UHGV virus genome: UHGV-1552609
Strand: one strand, 5' to 3'
Length of the DNA: 10,238 nucleotides
Source of the DNA: a virus
Shown here: positions 1 through 10,238 of the stretch, piece after piece
Numbering within the stretch: the first letter of the stretch is position 1
Layout: each line of letters opens with the position of its first letter
Program-made: the position numbers and the translations under genes
Notes under the pieces: model-generated
The model's database searches: none
Seen by the model: the letters and a program-made list of their open reading frames with translations, nothing else
What the model was told of the DNA's origin: nothing

Positions 1-45
1 GAGATTACAAGGTGACTGGAGTTCAGACGTGTGCTCTTCCGATCT
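1..45. other. Illumina TruSeq indexed adapter remnant (sequencing artefact at contig end)
   Basis: Positions 12-45 read GTGACTGGAGTTCAGACGTGTGCTCTTCCGATCT, the TruSeq read-2 primer site. It is preceded by TACAAG at 6-11 (reverse complement CTTGTA, which I recall as TruSeq index 12) and GAGAT at 1-5 (the end of the P7 flank). Recognised from memory of the adapter sequences. Confidence 0.95.
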
Positions 46-718
46 GGGCTTTTTCTTGCTCGCGTTTTTTCATCAATTCCAGCACCCTTTTAGCCGCTCC
101 CATTTGCTCATCATAATCACGTTTATTTATATGAACGTTTGGTTTGCCTTTCTCGTTTCTTTCGTCTGGTGGCGTTTTAGCGCGTACAGCGGCCCTATAC
201 CCGGTCATTGTCATGCCCCATGCTTCAGATTCAGACAATCCCAGGTGAGCAACGGCGGAGTAAACATACTCAAGGATGTCGAATGTTGGCTTGTACTCGC
301 CATCCTGGGTTGTGCCCGTGTCTTCTTCTGGACCGTCACCAATTAAACCGTGATACATACAGTGTTGCGCCAGCGTGATAACGTCGCAGGTTGGCATCAA
401 TCCAGGTTTCAGTCTTAACTTACCCGAAGGAGTAAAGCTGCATTCGCCCAATAACGGGCCTATTTCGCACTCTGAGCAACATTTCAGTACGTGGATGGAT
501 GTTTGCACAAGTTCACCATAACAACGCGCCAGAATGCGATTGCGGAGGTCTGTATCCATTGGCAAACGTTGTGGGTATCTGCCACCGTGAACCGTTGCGA
601 AATATTCGACCAGTTCCCTGTCACTGCCGATCTTAGCCATTGCAGCAAAGCAGGGATTAAATTCGTAACGCCTGCCATCAACTACAACCGCAAACTGTCC
701 TGTTCGAACGTGAATCAT
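46..718 (-). CDS. Hypothetical tail-region protein, 3' end truncated at the contig/adapter junction; its position after the major tail gene is where a tail assembly chaperone usually sits, but that is unverified
   Basis: This is the track ORF 23..727 on the minus strand. The track start is GTG at 727; the ATG at 718 has a better Shine-Dalgarno (AGGGTG, 6-nt spacer). The last 7 residues (QIGRAHV) and the stop codon are encoded entirely by adapter bases 23-46, so the true C-terminus is unknown. The central region has an unusual cysteine cluster (KCCSEC...GEC...PTC...QHCMYH). Confidence 0.45.
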
Positions 719-730
719 AGTTGTCACCCT

Positions 731-755
731 AAAAATAAAGGGGCCAAATGGCCCC
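731..755 (-). terminator. Rho-independent terminator downstream of the major tail protein gene
   Basis: On the minus strand the sequence reads GGGGCC-ATTT-GGCCCC followed by TTTATTTTT: a 6-bp GC stem (plus 740-745 pairing with 750-755), a 4-nt loop, then a T-tract (plus 731-739). It lies 17 nt after the TAA stop of the 773..1249 gene. Confidence 0.7.
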
Positions 756-772
756 GATGTTAATATTTGCTG

Positions 773-1249
773 TTACAATACAGGAACGTCGCCAACTGTG
801 ACCTTGCCAGCGCTTTCGCACTCAATGGACCAGGTTGATACATCGTCGTGAGGATCCTCTTCTTTAAAGGAGGTGCAAAGGAACGGACCTTCGGTTACAT
901 CGAGCGGTGAAACAAGTTTCAGCCAGACGTAAGGCTGCGCACCAGTTGTTTCGCCAGGGTTAATAACGTGGCGTTTAAGTGCCTTCTGATTATGAATTTC
1001 TTCAGTACGGGATACGCCGTCACCTGAGAAAGAAACAGATTTGTAAGTGACCATTGATTCTTTGGTGTAGTCTGCTGATTTGTCAGCGGTGGCGTCTGCG
1101 GTTTCCCATTCTACGGAAAGAGATTTGCCACGCATCATGCCTAACGCTTTATAAGCGCTTTCTTCAGGTTTCGCATTAGGGCAGGCGATAGCGTAAAATA
1201 CGGCAACGTCGCGGCCTAAGAACGAACCTTTATCACAAGTCTGAGACAT
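773..1249 (-). CDS. Putative major tail (tail tube) protein
   Basis: 158-aa ORF with an ATG start and a strong Shine-Dalgarno (AAGAGGT, 8-nt spacer). It is the last gene before a strong terminator and follows the head-tail joining genes, which is the usual position and size for a siphovirus tail tube protein. The family assignment is by gene order and size, not confirmed by homology search. Confidence 0.5.
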   Translation of the reverse strand: MSQTCDKGSFLGRDVAVFYAIACPNAKPEESAYKALGMMRGKSLSVEWETADATADKSADYTKESMVTYKSVSFSGDGVSRTEEIHNQKALKRHVINPGETTGAQPYVWLKLVSPLDVTEGPFLCTSFKEEDPHDDVSTWSIECESAGKVTVGDVPVL

Positions 1250-1262
1250 GTTTATTTACCTC

Positions 1263-1649
1263 TTATCTAGATATGATGGTTTGGAAAGCTACGGTGAAAA
1301 TAAAGCGCCCTTCTCTTGTCTGCATTGCAGGAATAGCGCCAATTGGTTTCATGTGTGTAATTTTATCAGTTTTATACTCGGTTATCATACTTTGGCGTAT
1401 TGCGTCGGCGAGATCTTCCACTTCACTAATATTTGCATCGTTACGCGCTGAAATAACCAGGATGCGGAAATAGTCACGGGTTACTGCTTCTTCACCAGCC
1501 GCACCGCCGTTTTGCTGTATGACAATGTACCTGTCGTTATTAGAATTGGATCGCTCATTCCAGAAACGGGCCTGCAAAATATAACCTTCGTCGTACCCGT
1601 GGGACTTAATCCAATCCCTTATTTCGTCATATACTTCGCTGCGTTTCAT
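1263..1649 (-). CDS. Putative tail completion / tail terminator protein
   Basis: 128-aa ORF whose ATG overlaps the upstream stop in an ATGA arrangement (1646-1649), indicating translational coupling. It sits immediately upstream of the major tail gene. Function is inferred from position only. Confidence 0.4.
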   Translation of the reverse strand: MKRSEVYDEIRDWIKSHGYDEGYILQARFWNERSNSNNDRYIVIQQNGGAAGEEAVTRDYFRILVISARNDANISEVEDLADAIRQSMITEYKTDKITHMKPIGAIPAMQTREGRFIFTVAFQTIISR

Positions 1650-2086
1650 GTTTTGTAACCTTCTACAATCTCTTTATAAATATCGTCAGCGTTGTTTGGA
1701 TCTTCAAATGCATTACGCAAAAATTCCGGCTCCGCGTTTGGGTCCCAATAATTACCCTTACCAGTGCCGCCGCCAAATTCGACGCCCTCTCTGGTTTTGC
1801 CGAAATGTTTGCGCGGCTGGCCTTTTAATTTACCCGGCATGTCATGCACCCATTCAGCGTAACGGGCCGTATATCCCAGCCGTAATTGCATACCCTCCGC
1901 CGTGTTACCTATATACTGAAATTGACTGTTAATTAAAAAACCCGTGTCAACTGGGGTCATGTTCGCCGCGAAGCCACCAGCCAGCATCCCTACTCGCCAT
2001 AACACCTCATAAGTTTTCTTGTCTGTGATTTCCTTTAGCTCCTGCTTTAATCGCTCCCTGACACGTTTGACGCCCTTAATAGGCAT
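1646..2086 (-). CDS. Putative head-tail joining protein, HK97 gp10-like
   Basis: 146-aa ORF with an ATG start preceded by AGGGGG (6-nt spacer). It contains a VDTGFLINS motif that I recall as resembling the DTGxLxxS signature of the HK97 gp10 family, and it sits in the neck gene cluster. Confidence 0.5.
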   Translation of the reverse strand: MPIKGVKRVRERLKQELKEITDKKTYEVLWRVGMLAGGFAANMTPVDTGFLINSQFQYIGNTAEGMQLRLGYTARYAEWVHDMPGKLKGQPRKHFGKTREGVEFGGGTGKGNYWDPNAEPEFLRNAFEDPNNADDIYKEIVEGYKT

Positions 2087-2088
2087 AA

Positions 2089-2457
2089 TTAACCCCCTGT
2101 AACGATCTTATAATCCGGCGTGTCGTTAAATATACTCATGTCCCATTCAACGATCCCGGTTATAAAGTTGGCCCCAGCCGCCAGCGGGTCAGCAATAGCA
2201 GTAGTGTCCCCAGTGGCAATCATCCACCCTTTTTCCGGGCGCTGTACTGGCTGCATCTTGTGAAGCAGTTCGGTATATACGGTTATCGTGTTGCTAACCT
2301 CATTCCCGTTTGCGTCTGTTGCGGTTCCGTCAGTGCGTTCCCATGCACAATCAATAAGATATGGCGTTCCGTATACGTCTGAGTTTGTCCAGTCGTCACG
2401 CGTTACGGGGTAAATGGTGGCTAATGCCTTGTAACTGAATCTCGCGATCTTACTCAT
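2089..2457 (-). CDS. Putative head-tail adaptor / head closure protein
   Basis: The track ORF is 2089..2463 (124 aa). The first ATG at 2463 has only a 2-nt spacer after GGAG, whereas the second ATG at 2457 has an 8-nt spacer, so I favour 2457. The start overlaps the end of the upstream 61-aa gene. Function is inferred from its position between the capsid and tail genes. Confidence 0.4.
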   Translation of the reverse strand: MSKIARFSYKALATIYPVTRDDWTNSDVYGTPYLIDCAWERTDGTATDANGNEVSNTITVYTELLHKMQPVQRPEKGWMIATGDTTAIADPLAAGANFITGIVEWDMSIFNDTPDYKIVTGG

Positions 2458-2635
2458 AGCCATAGCTCCATTTGACGATTTTCGGATGGGTTTTCGCCAC
2501 GCGTGGGCAAAGAATCACCCATTCGCCAGCGTCATTGAGATATGCCGCAACCTGTCGCCCGGTGTCAGTCTTCACCCATACGCGGGTAAACAGTTTTGGC
2601 AATAACGGATCCGGTAATGTAAGGTCATTCCACAT
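2450..2635 (-). CDS. Small hypothetical protein (61 aa) in the head-tail joining cluster
   Basis: ATG start with a strong Shine-Dalgarno (GGGAGGA, 7-nt spacer) lying 2 nt after the stop of the upstream gene; same strand and tight coupling with its neighbours. No recognisable motif. Confidence 0.45.
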   Translation of the reverse strand: MWNDLTLPDPLLPKLFTRVWVKTDTGRQVAAYLNDAGEWVILCPRVAKTHPKIVKWSYGYE

Positions 2636-2637
2636 TG

Positions 2638-3024
2638 TTACATCCTCCCGCTTTTACCTATCCACAAGCCAGCGTGCGCGGTGTTTTCTGGATCTGCTGG
2701 AATTAATTCGGCTGTACAGTGATTCTTATCAAGGGAGTAAAGCAACGAGTGTGCTGCCTTCCATTTTTTATTGAAATCGACATAGCGGTATGACTGGCTT
2801 GCACCGTTCGTACCAGTATGCGAGGAAACGTATTTGTTAGCCTGGGTGAGCCCCAACAGGCCAATCAGGTAAAGTTGAATTAATGTTGCAGTGGAGGCCG
2901 GATAGTTGGCATCAAGGCATTCGTTAACGCTGTTTGCCTGCTCCACCAGCAATGATAAGATAACGTCTGGCAGGTCAATACCCTGGCTTTCAAGATATTC
3001 CCGCGCCTGTTCTGTAGTGACCAT
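2638..3024 (-). CDS. Putative head-tail connector / head completion protein
   Basis: 128-aa ORF with an ATG start preceded by GGAG (8-nt spacer). It is the first gene after the terminator that follows the major capsid gene, the typical location of head-tail connector genes. Function is inferred from position. Confidence 0.4.
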   Translation of the reverse strand: MVTTEQAREYLESQGIDLPDVILSLLVEQANSVNECLDANYPASTATLIQLYLIGLLGLTQANKYVSSHTGTNGASQSYRYVDFNKKWKAAHSLLYSLDKNHCTAELIPADPENTAHAGLWIGKSGRM

Positions 3025-3042
3025 TTTGTTTGCTCCACATAC

Positions 3043-3071
3043 AAAAAAAAATCCCCGGCATCGCGCCGGGG
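3043..3071 (-). terminator. Rho-independent terminator downstream of the major capsid protein gene
   Basis: On the minus strand the sequence reads CCCCGGC-GCGAT-GCCGGGG, then A, then nine T residues: a 7-bp GC-rich stem (plus 3053-3059 pairing with 3065-3071), a 5-nt loop, and the T-run at plus 3043-3051. It lies about 20 nt after the MCP TAA stop at 3092-3094. Confidence 0.8.
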
Positions 3072-3091
3072 AGTTACAGGAAGCGTTCTAA

Positions 3092-4144
3092 TTAAGAATT
3101 TTTGCCGTAAACGACACCGGAACGGCCTAACATGTCGCAGGTGATTTGTAAACCTTCGGCAGACATGATTTTGAAGTTATAGTTATCAGTCGGCATAAAG
3201 CGCGGTACAGGTACAACGCCAGTAGTCATACCGATCAGCGGGGTGATGACATCACGGCGGCGCTGATAAGCAATAATTTCATTTCCTTTCAGTGCAAAGG
3301 TCTGGCGGATTTCACCTACCGGGGCGAACGGCATAACCGTTTGCAGCACGCTACCAACCACAGCACCGTTAACGATGTGCGGACGTGCCAGGTTAGCCAT
3401 GATTTCAGGTGATACCCACATAACATCATATTTAGCAACGAAGTTATTGCGGGCCAGAACGCCGAATTCACCAATGGTGAAGAAGTCGATCAGTGCGTCA
3501 AATTGCGCAGTGGTCAGGTCAGTTGTCAGGGTCAGTTGCTGGGTGTTTTTGTGGTTTTTAATACCCATAGCTTTATGACCATCAACCTTGATGTTTTCGT
3601 TACCGTTCAGATAGAAGTTAACGCGTGCTTTGTTGAATTTTTTCAGTTTCAGGCGCTGGCTGTCAAGGGCAAGGTCAATGCCTACAGTATTCAGGCCCTG
3701 AGCAAGACGCCAGTTGACACCATAACCAGCCGCGAACATCGGGATCGGGTCGCCATCGCTGCCGTATTCGGTGTGATCAAAGCCGTGCGGTGCCTGGCCA
3801 TCCATAGACATTACGACTTCATCGTTGATGTCACCGGATACGCTGTACATTTTCAGCGTTTTACCGATAGGCAGTACGGTTTGAACACCCATCAGGTCGT
3901 TGACGATTTCAATACCGATTTCCTCGGTGTTCAGTTCGATGATCTGGTTATCGATTTCTTTCCAGAACTCTTTTGCGAAGCCACCAACAGCGTTGCAGGC
4001 CAACATTTCAGAAGTCATGTTTGCTTTGTTCGCTGCAATCATGGCGTCATGTTGAGCGTTGAAGATATTGCGTTGCGCCCACAGTTCGTTCCAATGGCCC
4101 TGCATACGGGCGTTGGTAGCAAGGTTTTCTTTGGTAAAGTACAT
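3092..4144 (-). CDS. Putative major capsid protein
   Basis: 350-aa ORF with an ATG start preceded by AAGGGG (6-nt spacer). It is followed directly by a strong intrinsic terminator, which is typical of a highly expressed capsid gene, and it sits after the portal, minor head and scaffold genes. Its size fits an HK97-fold capsid protein. No homology search was run. Confidence 0.6.
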   Translation of the reverse strand: MYFTKENLATNARMQGHWNELWAQRNIFNAQHDAMIAANKANMTSEMLACNAVGGFAKEFWKEIDNQIIELNTEEIGIEIVNDLMGVQTVLPIGKTLKMYSVSGDINDEVVMSMDGQAPHGFDHTEYGSDGDPIPMFAAGYGVNWRLAQGLNTVGIDLALDSQRLKLKKFNKARVNFYLNGNENIKVDGHKAMGIKNHKNTQQLTLTTDLTTAQFDALIDFFTIGEFGVLARNNFVAKYDVMWVSPEIMANLARPHIVNGAVVGSVLQTVMPFAPVGEIRQTFALKGNEIIAYQRRRDVITPLIGMTTGVVPVPRFMPTDNYNFKIMSAEGLQITCDMLGRSGVVYGKNS

Positions 4145-4161
4145 GTTTTTCCCCTTTTAAA

Positions 4162-4584
4162 TTAAGCGACGCGAACTCGGATGAAGTCTTCTGCGGTCAG
4201 GGTCACATCTTCCTGGCAGAATGCAATGATTGGTGCTGAGCCGCCTTCCACAGCAGAAGACAATTTAGCGCCATCTGCCGCAAGGGAAATGGCTGCGCCT
4301 TTGGCATAAGTGGCCTTAGGAACACGGAGAGCAAACTCACGCCCCTGTTCCACATAATCGGCTACAACGGTTGCATTTGCAGCGATTGCATCAGCAATGG
4401 TTTTACCTTCATGGAATGCCGGGTTAACGATATACAACTGTCCCTTGCCAACATCAGCAGGGGCCGCTTTAACGAATTTACCGCCTTCAAGTTTAACCAG
4501 TTCACCAGGTTTTAATTCAGCACCAGCGAGGCGGGTTTCTGTGATGGATTTACCATCAATATTTACACGACGAAAACGAAACAT
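4162..4584 (-). CDS. Small head protein (140 aa), possibly a head decoration or accessory capsid protein
   Basis: ATG start preceded by AAGGGG (6-nt spacer), within a TAA-TTAAAAGGGGA junction motif that is also found upstream of the capsid gene. The protein is Ala/Gly/Val-rich and lies between the scaffold and capsid genes. Function is inferred from position only. Confidence 0.35.
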   Translation of the reverse strand: MFRFRRVNIDGKSITETRLAGAELKPGELVKLEGGKFVKAAPADVGKGQLYIVNPAFHEGKTIADAIAANATVVADYVEQGREFALRVPKATYAKGAAISLAADGAKLSSAVEGGSAPIIAFCQEDVTLTAEDFIRVRVA

Positions 4585-4600
4585 TGTGATCCCCTTTTAA

Positions 4601-5890
4601 TTAGAAATAAGTGTTAAAGTCTGGTACTTCGCCTTTTTTACCTTCGCTTGCTGCGTTGGTTGCCATCGGCGCTGCTTTGCCCAGGGATTTAAACATTGCT
4701 TCTAACGCTTCACCACTTAATGCGTTAGCAACAATTTCGCCGTGTACTTTTGCTACTGCGGCGCGTTTTTCTGCTACTTCTTTATCTGCGTTTGCTGCGA
4801 TCTCTTCTTTAATCGCTTTCTGGTTGGTCTGCAATTCTTTTTGGTTGGTCTGTAATTCTTCAACGCTTGCCTGTACTGGTTTAAGTGCTTCAGCTACTGC
4901 ACTGGCGATATTAGCGGCTAAACCTTCGTTAATTTCTTTTACCAGTTCGGCGCGTTCTTCTTTGGTCAAAGGCATGGGTTCACCCTCCGATTTATTGGCC
5001 TTAATTTTTTCATTCAGGGAGAAAAGATTAGATAAGTGTTCAGCGAACTGAGCGAACCACGATTTACTTTCCTCATTGGTTGCAAGCTCGCCATTATTGA
5101 GAATTATTTTATCAGCCTGTTTTTCATACGTGCAAACTTGAGCACTTTCAGTATTAGTGGCGATCGTCACTTCTTTATCAGTGAAGTCCACCACATACAC
5201 ATAATCGGCATCAGGGAATAATTCCCGCGCCGCGTCAGTTAATTGTTTCTCAAGCGTGCGATAGCTGTTTTCTTTCATTGCCACCGCCATTAACGGCTTC
5301 GCCTGGTCAGTGTTAACCATCAGGCCAACACCCTGTTCTGGCGATGCGGCTGGCGGTTCATGAAGTAGGATGGCGTCATGGTCGATTGACATGATTTTAA
5401 CCACGCTGTCAGCACCCTGTGCTTTCATTTCTTCAGTAGCTGGCATACGCTGACGATATACGGCAACAGATGACCAGATCGGATCTTTGCTTTCACCTTT
5501 TTCCAGTGCTTCGAGTCGGCTTAATAATTCGCGACCTTGTTCTGAATGGCTGGCGGTTTCAACATCCACCCATTTTTCCACATAAACACGGTTGCCACGT
5601 AATTCAACATTTCTGTTCCACGCTCCGCAAAAGCCAATATTCAGACCTTCCGGGCTAAATGCGGAAACAAATTCACCGTCTACGGTAGGATGACCCAGCG
5701 GCGCAAGCGTACCTTCCAAAGATTGATAATTAGCAATGATTTCAGCTTCCGGGTAATATTCCCGATTCATAACGATATTAAAGGGCAACGTATACGACGG
5801 AACCACAATGTGTTCGCGACCGTTATATGTTTCCCGGCGGATGGTATTAGCGGTTAATTTGGTATTAACCTGAATCAGTTCTTTATTCAC
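4601..5890 (-). CDS. Putative capsid scaffolding protein with an N-terminal domain of uncertain function (possibly prohead-protease-like or DUF2213/XkdF-like, from memory only)
   Basis: The track ORF is 4601..5905 with a TTG start. A GTG at 5890 lies 5 nt after the TAA of the upstream gene and has GGGAG 8 nt upstream, so I favour 5890. The C-terminal half is Ala/Glu/Lys-rich and helical in character, with a tandem ELQTNQK-ELQTNQK repeat, as expected for a scaffold. The N-terminal region contains GREHIVVP...YYPEAE. Confidence 0.5.
   Translation of the reverse strand: MNKELIQVNTKLTANTIRRETYNGREHIVVPSYTLPFNIVMNREYYPEAEIIANYQSLEGTLAPLGHPTVDGEFVSAFSPEGLNIGFCGAWNRNVELRGNRVYVEKWVDVETASHSEQGRELLSRLEALEKGESKDPIWSSVAVYRQRMPATEEMKAQGADSVVKIMSIDHDAILLHEPPAASPEQGVGLMVNTDQAKPLMAVAMKENSYRTLEKQLTDAARELFPDADYVYVVDFTDKEVTIATNTESAQVCTYEKQADKIILNNGELATNEESKSWFAQFAEHLSNLFSLNEKIKANKSEGEPMPLTKEERAELVKEINEGLAANIASAVAEALKPVQASVEELQTNQKELQTNQKAIKEEIAANADKEVAEKRAAVAKVHGEIVANALSGEALEAMFKSLGKAAPMATNAASEGKKGEVPDFNTYF
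4820..4861. repeat. 21-bp tandem direct repeat (2 units, 2 mismatches) inside the scaffold gene
   Basis: Plus strand 4820-4840 ctggttggtctgcaattcttt and 4841-4861 ttggttggtctgtaattcttc. On the minus strand these encode ELQTNQK twice; both mismatches are synonymous. Confidence 0.9.
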
Positions 5891-5895
5891 GGTTT

Positions 5896-6840
5896 TTACT
5901 CCCAATCTTCGCCATATTTAGCGTGCGCAACCTTATAGTTTTCTTGCGCCCGATCTAATATTCGTTTGTTTAATATGTTACCAGATTCATCGACCATCAC
6001 GGTAATAGTGCTACATTTGCAGTTAATTGAATTTGGGGATCTGCTCCACCATTCGCGCTGCTCTTCTATGGTGTACGTTTTCCCGTGCCGCTGTGCGTGT
6101 GATAACCTGGTAGTCGGTGACAGTGCAGAAATGTGCATCTGCATAGTGCGCAAGTTAAGCTCATCCGATGCGGCCTCTGCCTCATCCATACGAGCTGTGC
6201 GTAACGCTGTGCATATTTCAGTACGGGCAATACGTTTACACCTGTATAGCGGCAATTGCGTTTCCTGCTGCAATGTGCGTGCTATTTCCAGTGGGTTTAA
6301 GCCACGGGCCATGCCTTCAGTTAATCGGCGAGCCATATCCTTCTTGATCTGTGCTGTAAGCCCGCGCATCTCTTCAAATACACGGGTACGGACCAGGGCA
6401 AGGCGTGTGCGATATGTCTGACTGGTTAATACCGCCGACACTTCTGGATAAGCTCTGGAATATGTGACTGACTGGTTAGAGAGGTTGGCATATTCCTGTG
6501 AAGTGCCGCGCTGATATGCCACCTTCACGTAATTCTGCCAGAACCAGAAGTTTTCAGGGTCTGTTAACTCGAATATTTCATCAATCATGTCGCTGGCGTC
6601 TTCCAGCAAATCATGCAATTCGTCAATGTAGATCTGGAAGGTGTACTTCTTATTAACAGCCAGGGTATATTGTATTCTGTCCAGTATGGCAATATACGGA
6701 TCCGCGACTTTCTTCAGGCAGGCTTTAAAACGCTTGATAGCTCCCGACCGTAACTTACCTGTCATGGTCGGGTCTTCGGTGTTAGATGGCATTATAGCGG
6801 CTGGAGGTATTCGCCTGATTATCTTCTTCACCTTCATCAT
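5896..6840 (-). CDS. Minor head / head morphogenesis protein, Mu F-like (SPP1 gp7 family)
   Basis: 314-aa ORF with an ATG start preceded by GAGGA (5-nt spacer). It lies immediately downstream of the portal gene, as in SPP1 gp6/gp7 and Mu, and overlaps the portal 3' end by about 59 nt. The region GLNPLEIARTL...RIARTE resembles the Mu F-like domain as I recall it. Confidence 0.65.
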   Translation of the reverse strand: MMKVKKIIRRIPPAAIMPSNTEDPTMTGKLRSGAIKRFKACLKKVADPYIAILDRIQYTLAVNKKYTFQIYIDELHDLLEDASDMIDEIFELTDPENFWFWQNYVKVAYQRGTSQEYANLSNQSVTYSRAYPEVSAVLTSQTYRTRLALVRTRVFEEMRGLTAQIKKDMARRLTEGMARGLNPLEIARTLQQETQLPLYRCKRIARTEICTALRTARMDEAEAASDELNLRTMQMHISALSPTTRLSHAQRHGKTYTIEEQREWWSRSPNSINCKCSTITVMVDESGNILNKRILDRAQENYKVAHAKYGEDWE

Positions 6841-8152
6841 CGTTTTCCTCTTCCGTTTCTACTACACTGGCAGGGCCATCGTATCCGGCAGCCTCGCGGA
6901 TCTCGTCACCGCTAAATATTTCTTCACCAGTAGCCAGACAAGCCTGATTGATTTGTGCCATTTTGTATGCCGCTTCCAGTAGTTCGGCTTTAGTCATGGC
7001 GTTCAGGTCGTCCCATATAACTGATACATCAATTGGCATACTGATAAGGCGGAGATCTGCCATCTTGCGGAATAGTTCCTCAAGCTCGCCTCCGATTTCC
7101 TCGCGGCGGGTCATACAGCGGCTGTTGAAGTAGCGGAGATCTTCGGTTGATGCGCGTTCGCCCTGCTGGTTACCAACCAGGATGCGGGTCGGAATATCAA
7201 TACCAGCGGCGGCAGTTTGCAGGTTTACGTCATAGGTTGCTGACGGGTCAGATACGGCAGTCACTAGCGGGCTTACTGTTGCCCCCTGTAATGCCATCAT
7301 CACGTCGTTACCCTTATTCATTTCAGCCGCTGCCTCGTTGAATTTTTCGCGCAGCTCTGTGACGTCGCATCCGTATGTTGCAGCCAGAGAACGGAAATCA
7401 ATTTCTTTATCGAACGAGATAGCAAGTTGACGTGCTGCGTTTTTCAGGAATGATTCACCGCTGCCGCCTTCCACTTTCTCCAGCGAAACGAATGCGTTAT
7501 AGGACGGCTCAAGGAAAGCAATGGCATCATCAGAATAATCACCGAAGATAAATATGCGATCTGGATGTATCTTTCTTGCTATGGTCTTATTGTTAATGCG
7601 CTCCTTGTATTCCCACCATGTAGGCAGGCCATAGTTTTCTTTATCCGGGTTTTCTTCGAAGTCCTTCGGTGTAAGAGCACCAGCCCATACGGGGGTAAAT
7701 TTGGCAATGCCTACGCCTTTTGTTACTGGCTGATCCCACGGCTGGTTATCTCTGACATGAATTAACAGGCCAGCATAACGACCGATGAGGCGGCGGCGGT
7801 CGCATTCGGCAATGACACGCCAAAATCTGTTATCAAATTGTTTCTTGATTTCTCTTTCCCAGGGTGTTTCCGTTTCGGCTTTCTCGTCTTCGGTTCCTTC
7901 AATCATCGTTGGCCTGGTGCGCCAGCAAGTTGTGATAATCTTTTCTACAGCACCATGAGCGATACCACCGCGCCTGTACAGTTTGTATAGATCGTCATAC
8001 GTGATCTCTTCTTTGAATCCGTATTCACTCCACGCAGCATCGCGTTTGGCATCTATCCCCATAGTGAATGGGTTGGCGGCTGCATAGCGGGCGTAGGCCG
8101 CCTGGCGTTGAGACAAGGCAGCATTAACCGCCAATTCTAAATTGGATGGCAT
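6782..8152 (-). CDS. Portal protein
   Basis: The track ORF is 6782..8173 (463 aa). The ATG at 8152 (MPSNLELAV...) is preceded by AGGAG with an 8-nt spacer, whereas the first ATG at 8173 has no Shine-Dalgarno. Its size, its position immediately after the large terminase gene and its strongly acidic C-terminal tail are consistent with a portal. Confidence 0.7.
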   Translation of the reverse strand: MPSNLELAVNAALSQRQAAYARYAAANPFTMGIDAKRDAAWSEYGFKEEITYDDLYKLYRRGGIAHGAVEKIITTCWRTRPTMIEGTEDEKAETETPWEREIKKQFDNRFWRVIAECDRRRLIGRYAGLLIHVRDNQPWDQPVTKGVGIAKFTPVWAGALTPKDFEENPDKENYGLPTWWEYKERINNKTIARKIHPDRIFIFGDYSDDAIAFLEPSYNAFVSLEKVEGGSGESFLKNAARQLAISFDKEIDFRSLAATYGCDVTELREKFNEAAAEMNKGNDVMMALQGATVSPLVTAVSDPSATYDVNLQTAAAGIDIPTRILVGNQQGERASTEDLRYFNSRCMTRREEIGGELEELFRKMADLRLISMPIDVSVIWDDLNAMTKAELLEAAYKMAQINQACLATGEEIFSGDEIREAAGYDGPASVVETEEENDDEGEEDNQANTSSRYNAI

Positions 8153-8230
8153 AATGTTTACTCCTGAATACATGTTTACGCGTTGCTACGCGAAAAATAG
8201 AAAAACTTGTGGGGGATTGTGAGGCAGATT

Positions 8231-9709
8231 TTAAAATCCGCGCAGGCGCTTCGGTAACATGAGGCCCATCGCCTGTGGCTGGCTTAATTCGGTAATACCC
8301 CAGACCATTGCGTCCATACGGTCAGGGGATTTTTTGGCTGTAGCTGGCACGTATTCCATCATTTGATTTTCCAGCGTGTACAGTTCACCAGTGTGTGCCA
8401 CCCTTCCTTGCGCATACAGTGCAGATATTGGTTCGGCACGGGCGAATTTACCTTTGCTTGCGTGCACCTTAACAATGCGGCCTTTGAATCCGGCATTGCG
8501 TAGTGTGGCCTCTGCCATGTCACCGCCCTGGTTGGTTTCGATAACCATCGCGTCAGCCTCATGGATGTCATAGGCATTCATTGCTGCGTGCGCCCAGTCG
8601 TTAGGCGACATGCGGCCTGAATAGTCACCATCAACAGAATACTGAGCATTCTTGCCGCCACCATAGGCGGAACACGCCATGATCCCCGTTTCGTCCGATT
8701 CTTCCGATGAGGTTGTCGCCGGGTCGATGGCTATTACCGTGCGGATCTTGTCCTGCGTTATCTGCATCCGGTGCGCTGCGGTTATCATTGCTTCAGTCCA
8801 CAATGCGCCTTCTTCGTCGAATTTACGCGGGCGCTGCATGTACTGGGCCTCAAATGACCGCCTGTGTGCTTTCAGTCCAGCTTCATGGGCGTCATTGTGC
8901 TTTTTAGGCCATAGCCAGCCATCTGGCAGGTTGTGAGCGATAGGGATAGCGAACTCGTTTTCAGGGTACAGATCCCAGTAGTCCAGACCGTTATCGATCT
9001 TCACTGGCAGGTTCAGGTGATACCACTTTTCACCGCTTCCACCGCGTAGCAGGTAGCCTGACAAATCATCGTAGTGGATGCGCTGCATGATGACGATAAC
9101 AGGCGTCGTTTGCACTGCCAGACGTGAAGCAAGCGTGTCGTTATAGTTGGTATTTACCTGCTTTCTCACAACATCGGAGTAAGCGTCAGCGGGTTTTAAT
9201 GGGTCGTCTATGATTAACGCGCCGTTAAATCCCGGTTCCATATACCCGGCACGGAACCCAGTTACCTGGCCCAGCGATGACGTTGCATACACGCCGCCAC
9301 CGTATTCGGTCCACCACATCGATTTTGAGTTTGCATCGTTGCGGATCTTCATGGGCCACATTGCCTGATACTCAGGCGTGCAGATCATGTTTCTTACGGT
9401 CGAGGAATTGAGTAGTGCCAGGTTGTTGGAATAGGAAACGTGAAGGAATCGTGTGCGGGGATTTATTGCGAGGGACCGCGCCATCATATTGATAGTGGCG
9501 ATCATGGTTTTGCCGTACCCTGGGGGGATGTTGATGATGAGTCGGGTTATCTCACCTTTGATAACGCGTTGCAGTGCGTCGCGGATAGCTAAATGATGGC
9601 CTGAGATTAACATCTTCGTTCCATTCGCTTGCTTGTAAAAGTAGCGATTGAAAAACAGGCCATCGTTTTCACATTTGGACTGAATTACTCGTTCTCTGAT
9701 TGTCAACAT
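8231..9709 (-). CDS. terL: Terminase large subunit
   Basis: The track ORF is 8231..9715 with a GTG start. The ATG at 9709 has GAGG 8 nt upstream and lies 2 nt after the small terminase stop. There is a Walker A-like P-loop (PPGYGKT) near the N-terminus, and the C-terminal region contains an AIDPA motif and acidic residues typical of the terminase nuclease domain. About 490 aa, immediately downstream of the small terminase gene. Confidence 0.9.
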   Translation of the reverse strand: MLTIRERVIQSKCENDGLFFNRYFYKQANGTKMLISGHHLAIRDALQRVIKGEITRLIINIPPGYGKTMIATINMMARSLAINPRTRFLHVSYSNNLALLNSSTVRNMICTPEYQAMWPMKIRNDANSKSMWWTEYGGGVYATSSLGQVTGFRAGYMEPGFNGALIIDDPLKPADAYSDVVRKQVNTNYNDTLASRLAVQTTPVIVIMQRIHYDDLSGYLLRGGSGEKWYHLNLPVKIDNGLDYWDLYPENEFAIPIAHNLPDGWLWPKKHNDAHEAGLKAHRRSFEAQYMQRPRKFDEEGALWTEAMITAAHRMQITQDKIRTVIAIDPATTSSEESDETGIMACSAYGGGKNAQYSVDGDYSGRMSPNDWAHAAMNAYDIHEADAMVIETNQGGDMAEATLRNAGFKGRIVKVHASKGKFARAEPISALYAQGRVAHTGELYTLENQMMEYVPATAKKSPDRMDAMVWGITELSQPQAMGLMLPKRLRGF

Positions 9710-9711
9710 AA

Positions 9712-10107
9712 TCACACCTCGTCTTCTACTTCCTGGACGATGCGGGCGATCTCTTCTTTCGTGACTTCAACCTGGACTGGCGCTTCTTCCCTGTTGCCGA
9801 CGATCTCCTGCGTGACGCGTTCACCATATTTACGCGGTTGCAGTTTTGCCAGTAACCATTTACGCGTTTCAATCATCAAATGATGTCTGTTCAATTCTTC
9901 CTTTTTGATGTTCTCTGGCGCATCAGCAAGATCGATAATCTCATCAGCCAATACCTCAAAACCGATCTCCTTCGCGCGCATATACATGTCCGAAAACTCT
10001 GGCACATCACGGAACCACTTGAGGATTGTTGAACGTGCAGGCATACCAGGCATCTTCGAAATTTTGTTAATGCTTTCGCCGTCCGACACAAGCTCGCAGA
10101 TCTCCAA
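9712..10107 (-). CDS. terS: Terminase small subunit (5' boundary uncertain; conserved coding appears to extend upstream to about 10200 with no in-frame start)
   Basis: The protein has a helix-turn-helix-like N-terminal region (ICELVSDGESINKISKMPGMPARSTILKWFRDVPEFSDMYMRAKE) that matches, from memory, the conserved N-terminus of many small terminases, and it sits directly upstream of the large terminase gene. The only available start in the track ORF is TTG at 10107, which would cut into this conserved region; see the corresponding finding. Confidence 0.75.
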   Translation of the reverse strand: MEICELVSDGESINKISKMPGMPARSTILKWFRDVPEFSDMYMRAKEIGFEVLADEIIDLADAPENIKKEELNRHHLMIETRKWLLAKLQPRKYGERVTQEIVGNREEAPVQVEVTKEEIARIVQEVEDEV

Positions 10108-10238
10108 TGCCTTTTCTTCTGAATAGCCATGTGGACGGCCCGTCTTTTTGGCTGCTGGCTTTTTATCGTCAGCCTTTGCCTTTTTATCGCCAAAGTTCCT
10201 TTATGGTTTCTTCAAATTCATGATTGATACCGGGTTTA

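Follow-up and report, generated by a model that had tools for sequence, protein, structure and literature searches.

The window, by which we mean the whole stretch of DNA analysed (10,238 nucleotides of the viral genome UHGV-1552609), encodes on its minus strand, tips aside, an Sf6-like small terminase (terS), the large terminase, a portal, a Mu-F-like head protein, the major capsid protein, head-tail connectors, the tail tube and a DUF6246 protein. Between positions 46 and 10186 it is colinear with the terS-to-tail-tube module of the mEp021 group of lambdoid phages of E. coli and of the related prophages. Identity reaches 93% with mEp021 (MH706966; bases 46-3000), 83-91% with mEp010, mEp044, mEp554, mEp013, mEp515 and MagusPhagus, and 85-91% over the whole window with the prophages listed among the 35 matching complete E. 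coli chromosomes. No record in the collections searched was identical at 95% or more across the window.

One gene of this module bears a puzzling name in public genomes. The homologue of 6782-8173 (minus strand) is labelled 'anti-CBASS protein Acb1 family protein' by RefSeq/PGAP in 15 of the 15 listed rows of the 35 matching E. coli genomes. The gene lies at the portal position, is annotated as the portal protein in mEp021 and matches Pfam Phage_portal_3, and an NCBIfam scan of the portal homologue, run to account for the Acb1 label, gave no match. The label therefore seems either to be misapplied or to reflect a fused domain.

The last gene on the minus strand, called at 23..718, belongs to the tail module and carries DUF6246 (PF19759, E = 5.7e-55; score 186.4 bits, gathering score 27; positions 1-184 of the 185 in the profile). 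NCBI uses the name DUF6246 family protein for its cluster mates. The product has 231 aa when started at the ATG at 718 and 234 aa when started at the GTG at 727. The earlier note had drawn this ORF as 23..727; its coordinates and its end hold, but the likelier start is ATG 718, since all homologues start with MIHVRTG. The GTG-start version is absent from the public protein collection in which we sought it, and only the 231-aa ATG-start version is present. The gene (window 46-727) sits between the tail tube and tape-measure genes, a slot that holds the tail assembly chaperone (gpG/gpGT) in lambda-like phages. In mEp021 and the prophage of E. coli WCHEC025970, DUF6246 is separated from the tape-measure gene by an inserted 417-nt gene of opposite orientation; the region compared with window 46-727 is 2536-3703 of locus L001.

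The end of this gene call runs into the first 45 bases of the window, GAGATTACAAGGTGACTGGAGTTCAGACGTGTGCTCTTCCGATCT, which read, block by block, GAGAT, TACAAG, GTGACTGGAGTTCAGACGTGTGCTCTTCCGATC and T. We tested the window start against reverse-complemented versions of the TruSeq indexed adapter, one for each of 24 indices. Bases 1-45 are identical at 45/45 positions to the reverse complement of the Index-12 adapter including its A-tail base (adapter nt 1-44, reverse-complemented, match bases 1-44 exactly), and index 12 (CTTGTA) was the sole match, the other 23 giving none. The oligo, TruSeq_Adapter-Index12, is printed as /5PHOS/GATCGGAAGAGCACACGTCTGAACTCCAGTCACCTTGTAATCTCGTATGCCGTCTTCTGCTTG in PMC8362010, so that the identification of these bases as an Illumina TruSeq index adapter, proposed from the letters only, stands up to exact comparison.

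The subdivision into P7 tail, index and read-2 primer site is likewise exact in each part. Read on the plus strand, positions 1..5 are the last 5 nt of the P7 flow-cell sequence (…CGAGAT; the reverse complement of ATCTC), 6..11 (TACAAG) are index 12 in reverse complement, and 12..45 form the read-2 sequencing-primer site, with 12-44 corresponding to GATCGGAAGAGCACACGTCTGAACTCCAGTCAC on the other strand. The T at base 45 complements the A-tail and is the terminal T, or T-overhang base, of the adapter duplex; all 45 bases are therefore non-genomic. The window thus contains what characterises a P7-side adapter of the TruSeq type: the 33-nt constant part GATCGGAAGAGCACACGTCTGAACTCCAGTCAC with the A-tail base (12-45), a 6-nt index from the kit list straight after it (6-11), and then the P7 sequence ATCTCGTATGCCGTCTTCTGCTTG, present as 5 nt in the window (1-5) and with all its 24 nt in a sister contig described below. 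TruSeq-compatible index-12 oligos of other vendors presumably have the same sequence, and therefore no brand or kit can be named.

The 45-mer is present in a single copy within the window and had no match, with 3 mismatches tolerated, in 200 dinucleotide-preserving shuffles. A search across the window for the cores of the Nextera, P5 and universal adapters, and for internal adapter copies, gave nothing outside 1-45. We rejected a 10-nt match to P7 at window position 4252 as a chance occurrence.

The adapter explains the end of the DUF6246 call. The translation of ORF 23..727(-) ends in ...MKKREQEKAQIGRAHV (...EKAQIGRAHV), and its TGA stop (minus strand, 23..25, read 25-23) is made of adapter bases throughout. 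The natural homologues end differently: the E. coli cluster mates, of 225-226 aa, end in ...EKAR, ...EKARS or ...EKARN, and the mEp021 gene has two more codons beyond the equivalent of base 46 and ends in ...EKARG*. The genuine sequence (bases 46-718) thus encodes ...EKA and breaks off after the C that opens an Arg codon; the adapter completes this codon as Q and adds IGRAHV and the TGA. The artificial stop and tail suspected in the earlier note are thereby borne out, with one small correction: QIGRAHV comes from the adapter for 20/21 coding bases, and the first base of the Q codon (C, base 46) is genomic, being the first base of the Arg codon. The true protein loses just 1-2 residues and its stop.

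A second ORF at this tip is also an artefact. The ORF at 29..346 on the plus strand, antisense to DUF6246, is a mechanical one that takes its GTG start (29-31) from the adapter; it matches no Pfam family, no gene is called there on the sister contig, and it is not a gene, as had been supposed when it was described as spurious and seeded by the adapter. The warning that deposited annotations might be partly artefactual has come true for the other ORF: the 231-aa product with the QIGRAHV tail was called on a contig in ENA and is present in the public protein collection.

Homology to relatives breaks off where the adapter begins. We aligned the window with 7 phages of the mEp021 group and with prophages in 35 E. 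coli chromosomes; most alignments begin at window positions 43-47 and the rest at 155-157, and none crosses the adapter proper. The homology of relatives thus starts around base 46 or further in, and bases 1-45 are matched just by unrelated records, in agreement with the earlier claim that they are not genomic DNA. The string lies at the end of the contig, with its P7 side outward, and is absent from the homologous genomes, as expected of an assembly artefact. The first genuine phage bases, GGGCTTTTT (46..54, unstranded), were delimited by the alignment with mEp021 and the annotation of its terminator. They are the 3' half of the terminator hairpin annotated in mEp021 (GCCCGG-CTAACC-CCGGGC-TTTTT), and the end of the sequenced DNA fragment lay inside this hairpin.

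A look-up of the precise translation of the corrupted DUF6246 call (ATG 718 to the adapter stop) led to one public contig, in ENA ERZ773516. This sister contig, NODE_2140_length_10342_cov_5.549830, has 10,342 bp and a coverage of ~5.5x according to its record name, and its reverse complement shows 0 mismatches to window positions 1-10186. At the same junction it reads TTTTTT, CAAGCAGAAGACGGCATACGAGAT, TACAAG and GTGACTGGAGTTCAGACGTGTGCTCTTCCGATCT, and then ends. It therefore holds, at the base-46 junction, the complete 64-nt adapter and a poly-A run, i.e., 70 adapter-side bases against 45 in the window, a difference that may stem from the settings of the assemblers or from trimming of part of the adapter. 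The placement of the window at a contig edge is thereby upheld. The difference in length also led us to reject an estimate of the k-mer size of the assembler from the 45-nt remnant, given the 70 nt at the same junction in the sister assembly. Most simply, the window and NODE_2140 are two assemblies of one library. Neither the adapter-genome junction nor a 22-mer from the right end had a match in IMG/VR, and the junction had none among JGI metagenome contigs either; the contig of the window itself is thus absent from both collections.

The other end of the window is foreign as well, which is new relative to the earlier note. Positions 10187..10238 (plus strand) are chromosomal DNA of Phocaeicola vulgatus: the identity starts at 10185 and covers 54/54 positions, up to 10238, of the chromosome of strain ATCC 8482 (NZ_CAXTYD010000003.1), within a 1057-aa ORF that appears helicase-like by eye from its translation. 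Just 'TA' is common to both sequences at the join. The matches of all relatives end at window positions 10185-10187, 11 nt before the start codon of terS. This gene (9712..10186, minus strand; Pfam Sf6_terminase, E = 1.7e-34) accordingly misses its first 3-4 codons, with the ATG and the ribosome-binding site: the join falls at codon 4, and upstream of it a TAA now lies in frame. As a result, terS appears in the ORF list just as a 131-aa ORF with a TTG start (9712..10107), beside which an overlapping 100-aa ORF lies in another frame (9891..10193). We considered a frameshift in terS (window 9712-10197) and rejected it, since the alignment to relatives is free of gaps (that with the WCHEC025970 prophage is ungapped and ends 11 nt before the ATG); the short ORF arises solely because the chimeric junction has removed the ATG.

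In NODE_2140, terS has a normal start and encodes 161 aa with a match to Pfam Sf6_terminase, and the contig has 131 additional nt that match the prophage relatives. The Phocaeicola stretch is absent from the sister assembly and from all relatives. When the 69 nt at the right end were compared with phage records by distant BLAST, matches were at chance level only; PhiX, lambda and known phage modules are thereby dismissed as its source. In the full-window search of E. coli, 10187-10238 matched nothing, the rest of the window having one place per genome; a common E. coli insertion sequence is thereby also dismissed. The presence of the same genotype with a normal terS in NODE_2140 indicates that the Phocaeicola tail is the tip of a chimeric read and not part of a recombinant phage. 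The Phocaeicola DNA also indicates that the sample was a gut metagenome and the window an entire contig, artefactual at both tips.

The adapter string is by no means restricted to this contig. Bases 1-47, 11-47, 11-49 or 12-49 of the window match unrelated phage records at 91.8-100% identity, the upper value being reached in 8/13 of the listed unrelated records that match the window start. These records include Salmonella phage TS13, phages of Klebsiella, Mycobacterium, Bacillus, Caulobacter, Paenibacillus and Staphylococcus, and the RNA phage MS2. The matches lie mostly within ~100 nt of the end of the record and nearly all in unannotated sequence. A shared synthetic contaminant is the only explanation for the same string in phages of unrelated hosts, mostly near record ends. 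IMG/VR contigs that contain the adapter 34-mer of positions 12-45, its P7 side pointing outward, number at least 120. Among the IMG/VR matches listed, it is within 100 nt of the end of the locus in 107/123 occurrences, and most copies with enough upstream sequence have GAGAT and varied 6-8-nt kit indices ahead of it.

Several of these records deserve mention in their own right. Among the IMG/VR loci (L006-L125), IMGVR_UViG_3300045988_036917 (L042) has the 34-mer at both ends. Two of the IMG/VR occurrences listed are more than 250 nt from the locus end and may represent chimeric joins within a contig. The same 34-mer is present in over 10 phage records of GenBank, including 'complete' phage genomes (MK249308.1 23-69, LC768500.1 38-74, LC710218.1 17-52 and KY442063.1 22-55), and in OR797046.1 (38874-38908) and PV611058.1 (295321-295355) the adapter lies under an annotated CDS, in one case for a hypothetical protein and in the other for 'Sir2'.

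We conclude, with a probability of about 98%, that bases 1-45 are a synthetic remnant of a TruSeq-type index-12 adapter that probably reached the contig tip via read-through. Four elements of this account are direct observations: the identity of the adapter, the break of homology at base 46, the full adapter in the sister assembly and the corrupted public protein. The order of sequences on the window minus strand, from the insert through AGATCGGAAGAGC...CTTGTA...CTTG to AAAAAA, is that of insert, adapter and poly-A, the order seen in read 1 on an insert shorter than the read; 4-colour Illumina instruments give poly-A once reading passes the end of the template. We thus propose that a library fragment from an mEp021-like E. 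coli phage or prophage, with its end at window base 46, was too short to fill a read, so that read 1, which corresponds to the window minus strand, would have passed the insert and entered the adapter, as in short-insert read-through. The reads were presumably used without adapter trimming, and the assembler may have extended the contig tip with the read-through of one or a few reads. At 5.5x coverage, so few untrimmed reads could suffice to build such a tip. The adapter brings its TGA in frame with the DUF6246 gene, and gene callers therefore yield the false QIGRAHV C-terminus.

Could the 45 bases be natural genomic DNA that resembles an adapter by chance? No observation speaks for this; a few alignments of relatives reach 1-3 bases into the adapter (from window position 43), but this is chance identity. 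A 45/45 exact match has a chance of ~4^-45 per site, in line with its absence from the shuffles, and no relative has bases 1-45 in common with the window. The sister assembly runs on into the full P7 and poly-A, and the same string recurs in phages of unrelated hosts, one of them an RNA phage. The odds against this reading are of the order of a thousand to one, and we regard natural DNA mimicking an adapter as excluded; bases 1-45 are confirmed as a laboratory artefact, with no biological feature.

A subtler alternative accepts the adapter as real and takes base 46 for a genuine recurrent end of DNA, either a genome terminus or a preferred site of breakage or processing at the terminator hairpin. 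That the junction is identical in two assemblies and falls inside the hairpin would fit this view, but two assemblies identical over 10,186 bases and with the same index most simply derive from the same reads, and coverage, as given for the sister contig, is just 5.5x. Base 46 is part of the tail module, where it falls between the DUF6246 and tape-measure genes, ~10 kb from terS. The Pfam match of the small terminase to the Sf6-like type points to headful packaging, with which this type is associated and which leaves no fixed ends, and the related prophages of the 35 E. coli chromosomes run through this position without a break. We therefore consider a recurrent end at base 46 very unlikely, and a true recombinant molecule at the junction of terS with P. 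vulgatus (10186/10187) less likely still. The preferred reading remains that of read-through into an index-12 adapter at one tip and of a chimeric read at the other.

The worth of these findings lies in quality control and not in biology, and the adapter matters only in that it spoils how a single gene call ends. Before use, the contig should be cut back to 46-10186, and the C-terminus of the public 231-aa DUF6246 protein should be treated as corrupted. The chimeric tip calls for equal care: the false 5' truncation of terS could wrongly suggest a defective prophage, and the Phocaeicola tail could mislead host prediction by giving a false Bacteroidales signal for an E. coli phage. Both tips of low-coverage metagenomic contigs can carry the sequence of single artefactual reads.

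Compared with the mEp021 group, the genuine part of the window represents a distinct genotype, known from a metagenome and not from an isolate. The first 44 bases of the window are, reverse-complemented, the first 44 nt of the Illumina TruSeq Index 12 adapter (GATCGGAAGAGCACACGTCTGAACTCCAGTCAC-CTTGTA-ATCTCGTATGCCGTCTTCTGCTTG), of whose 24-nt P7 part the window keeps just a 5-nt stub, whereas the sister contig has all 63 nt and the A-tail base. Contamination by Illumina adapters has been called well documented, with NCBI FCS-adaptor and UniVec named as screens (PMC13182109). The case described here does not differ in substance from the adapter contamination of public assemblies of the kind caught by UniVec/VecScreen and FCS-adaptor: it is likewise synthetic, lies at a contig end, points outward and creates false ends of ORFs, and is thus a typical, textbook example.
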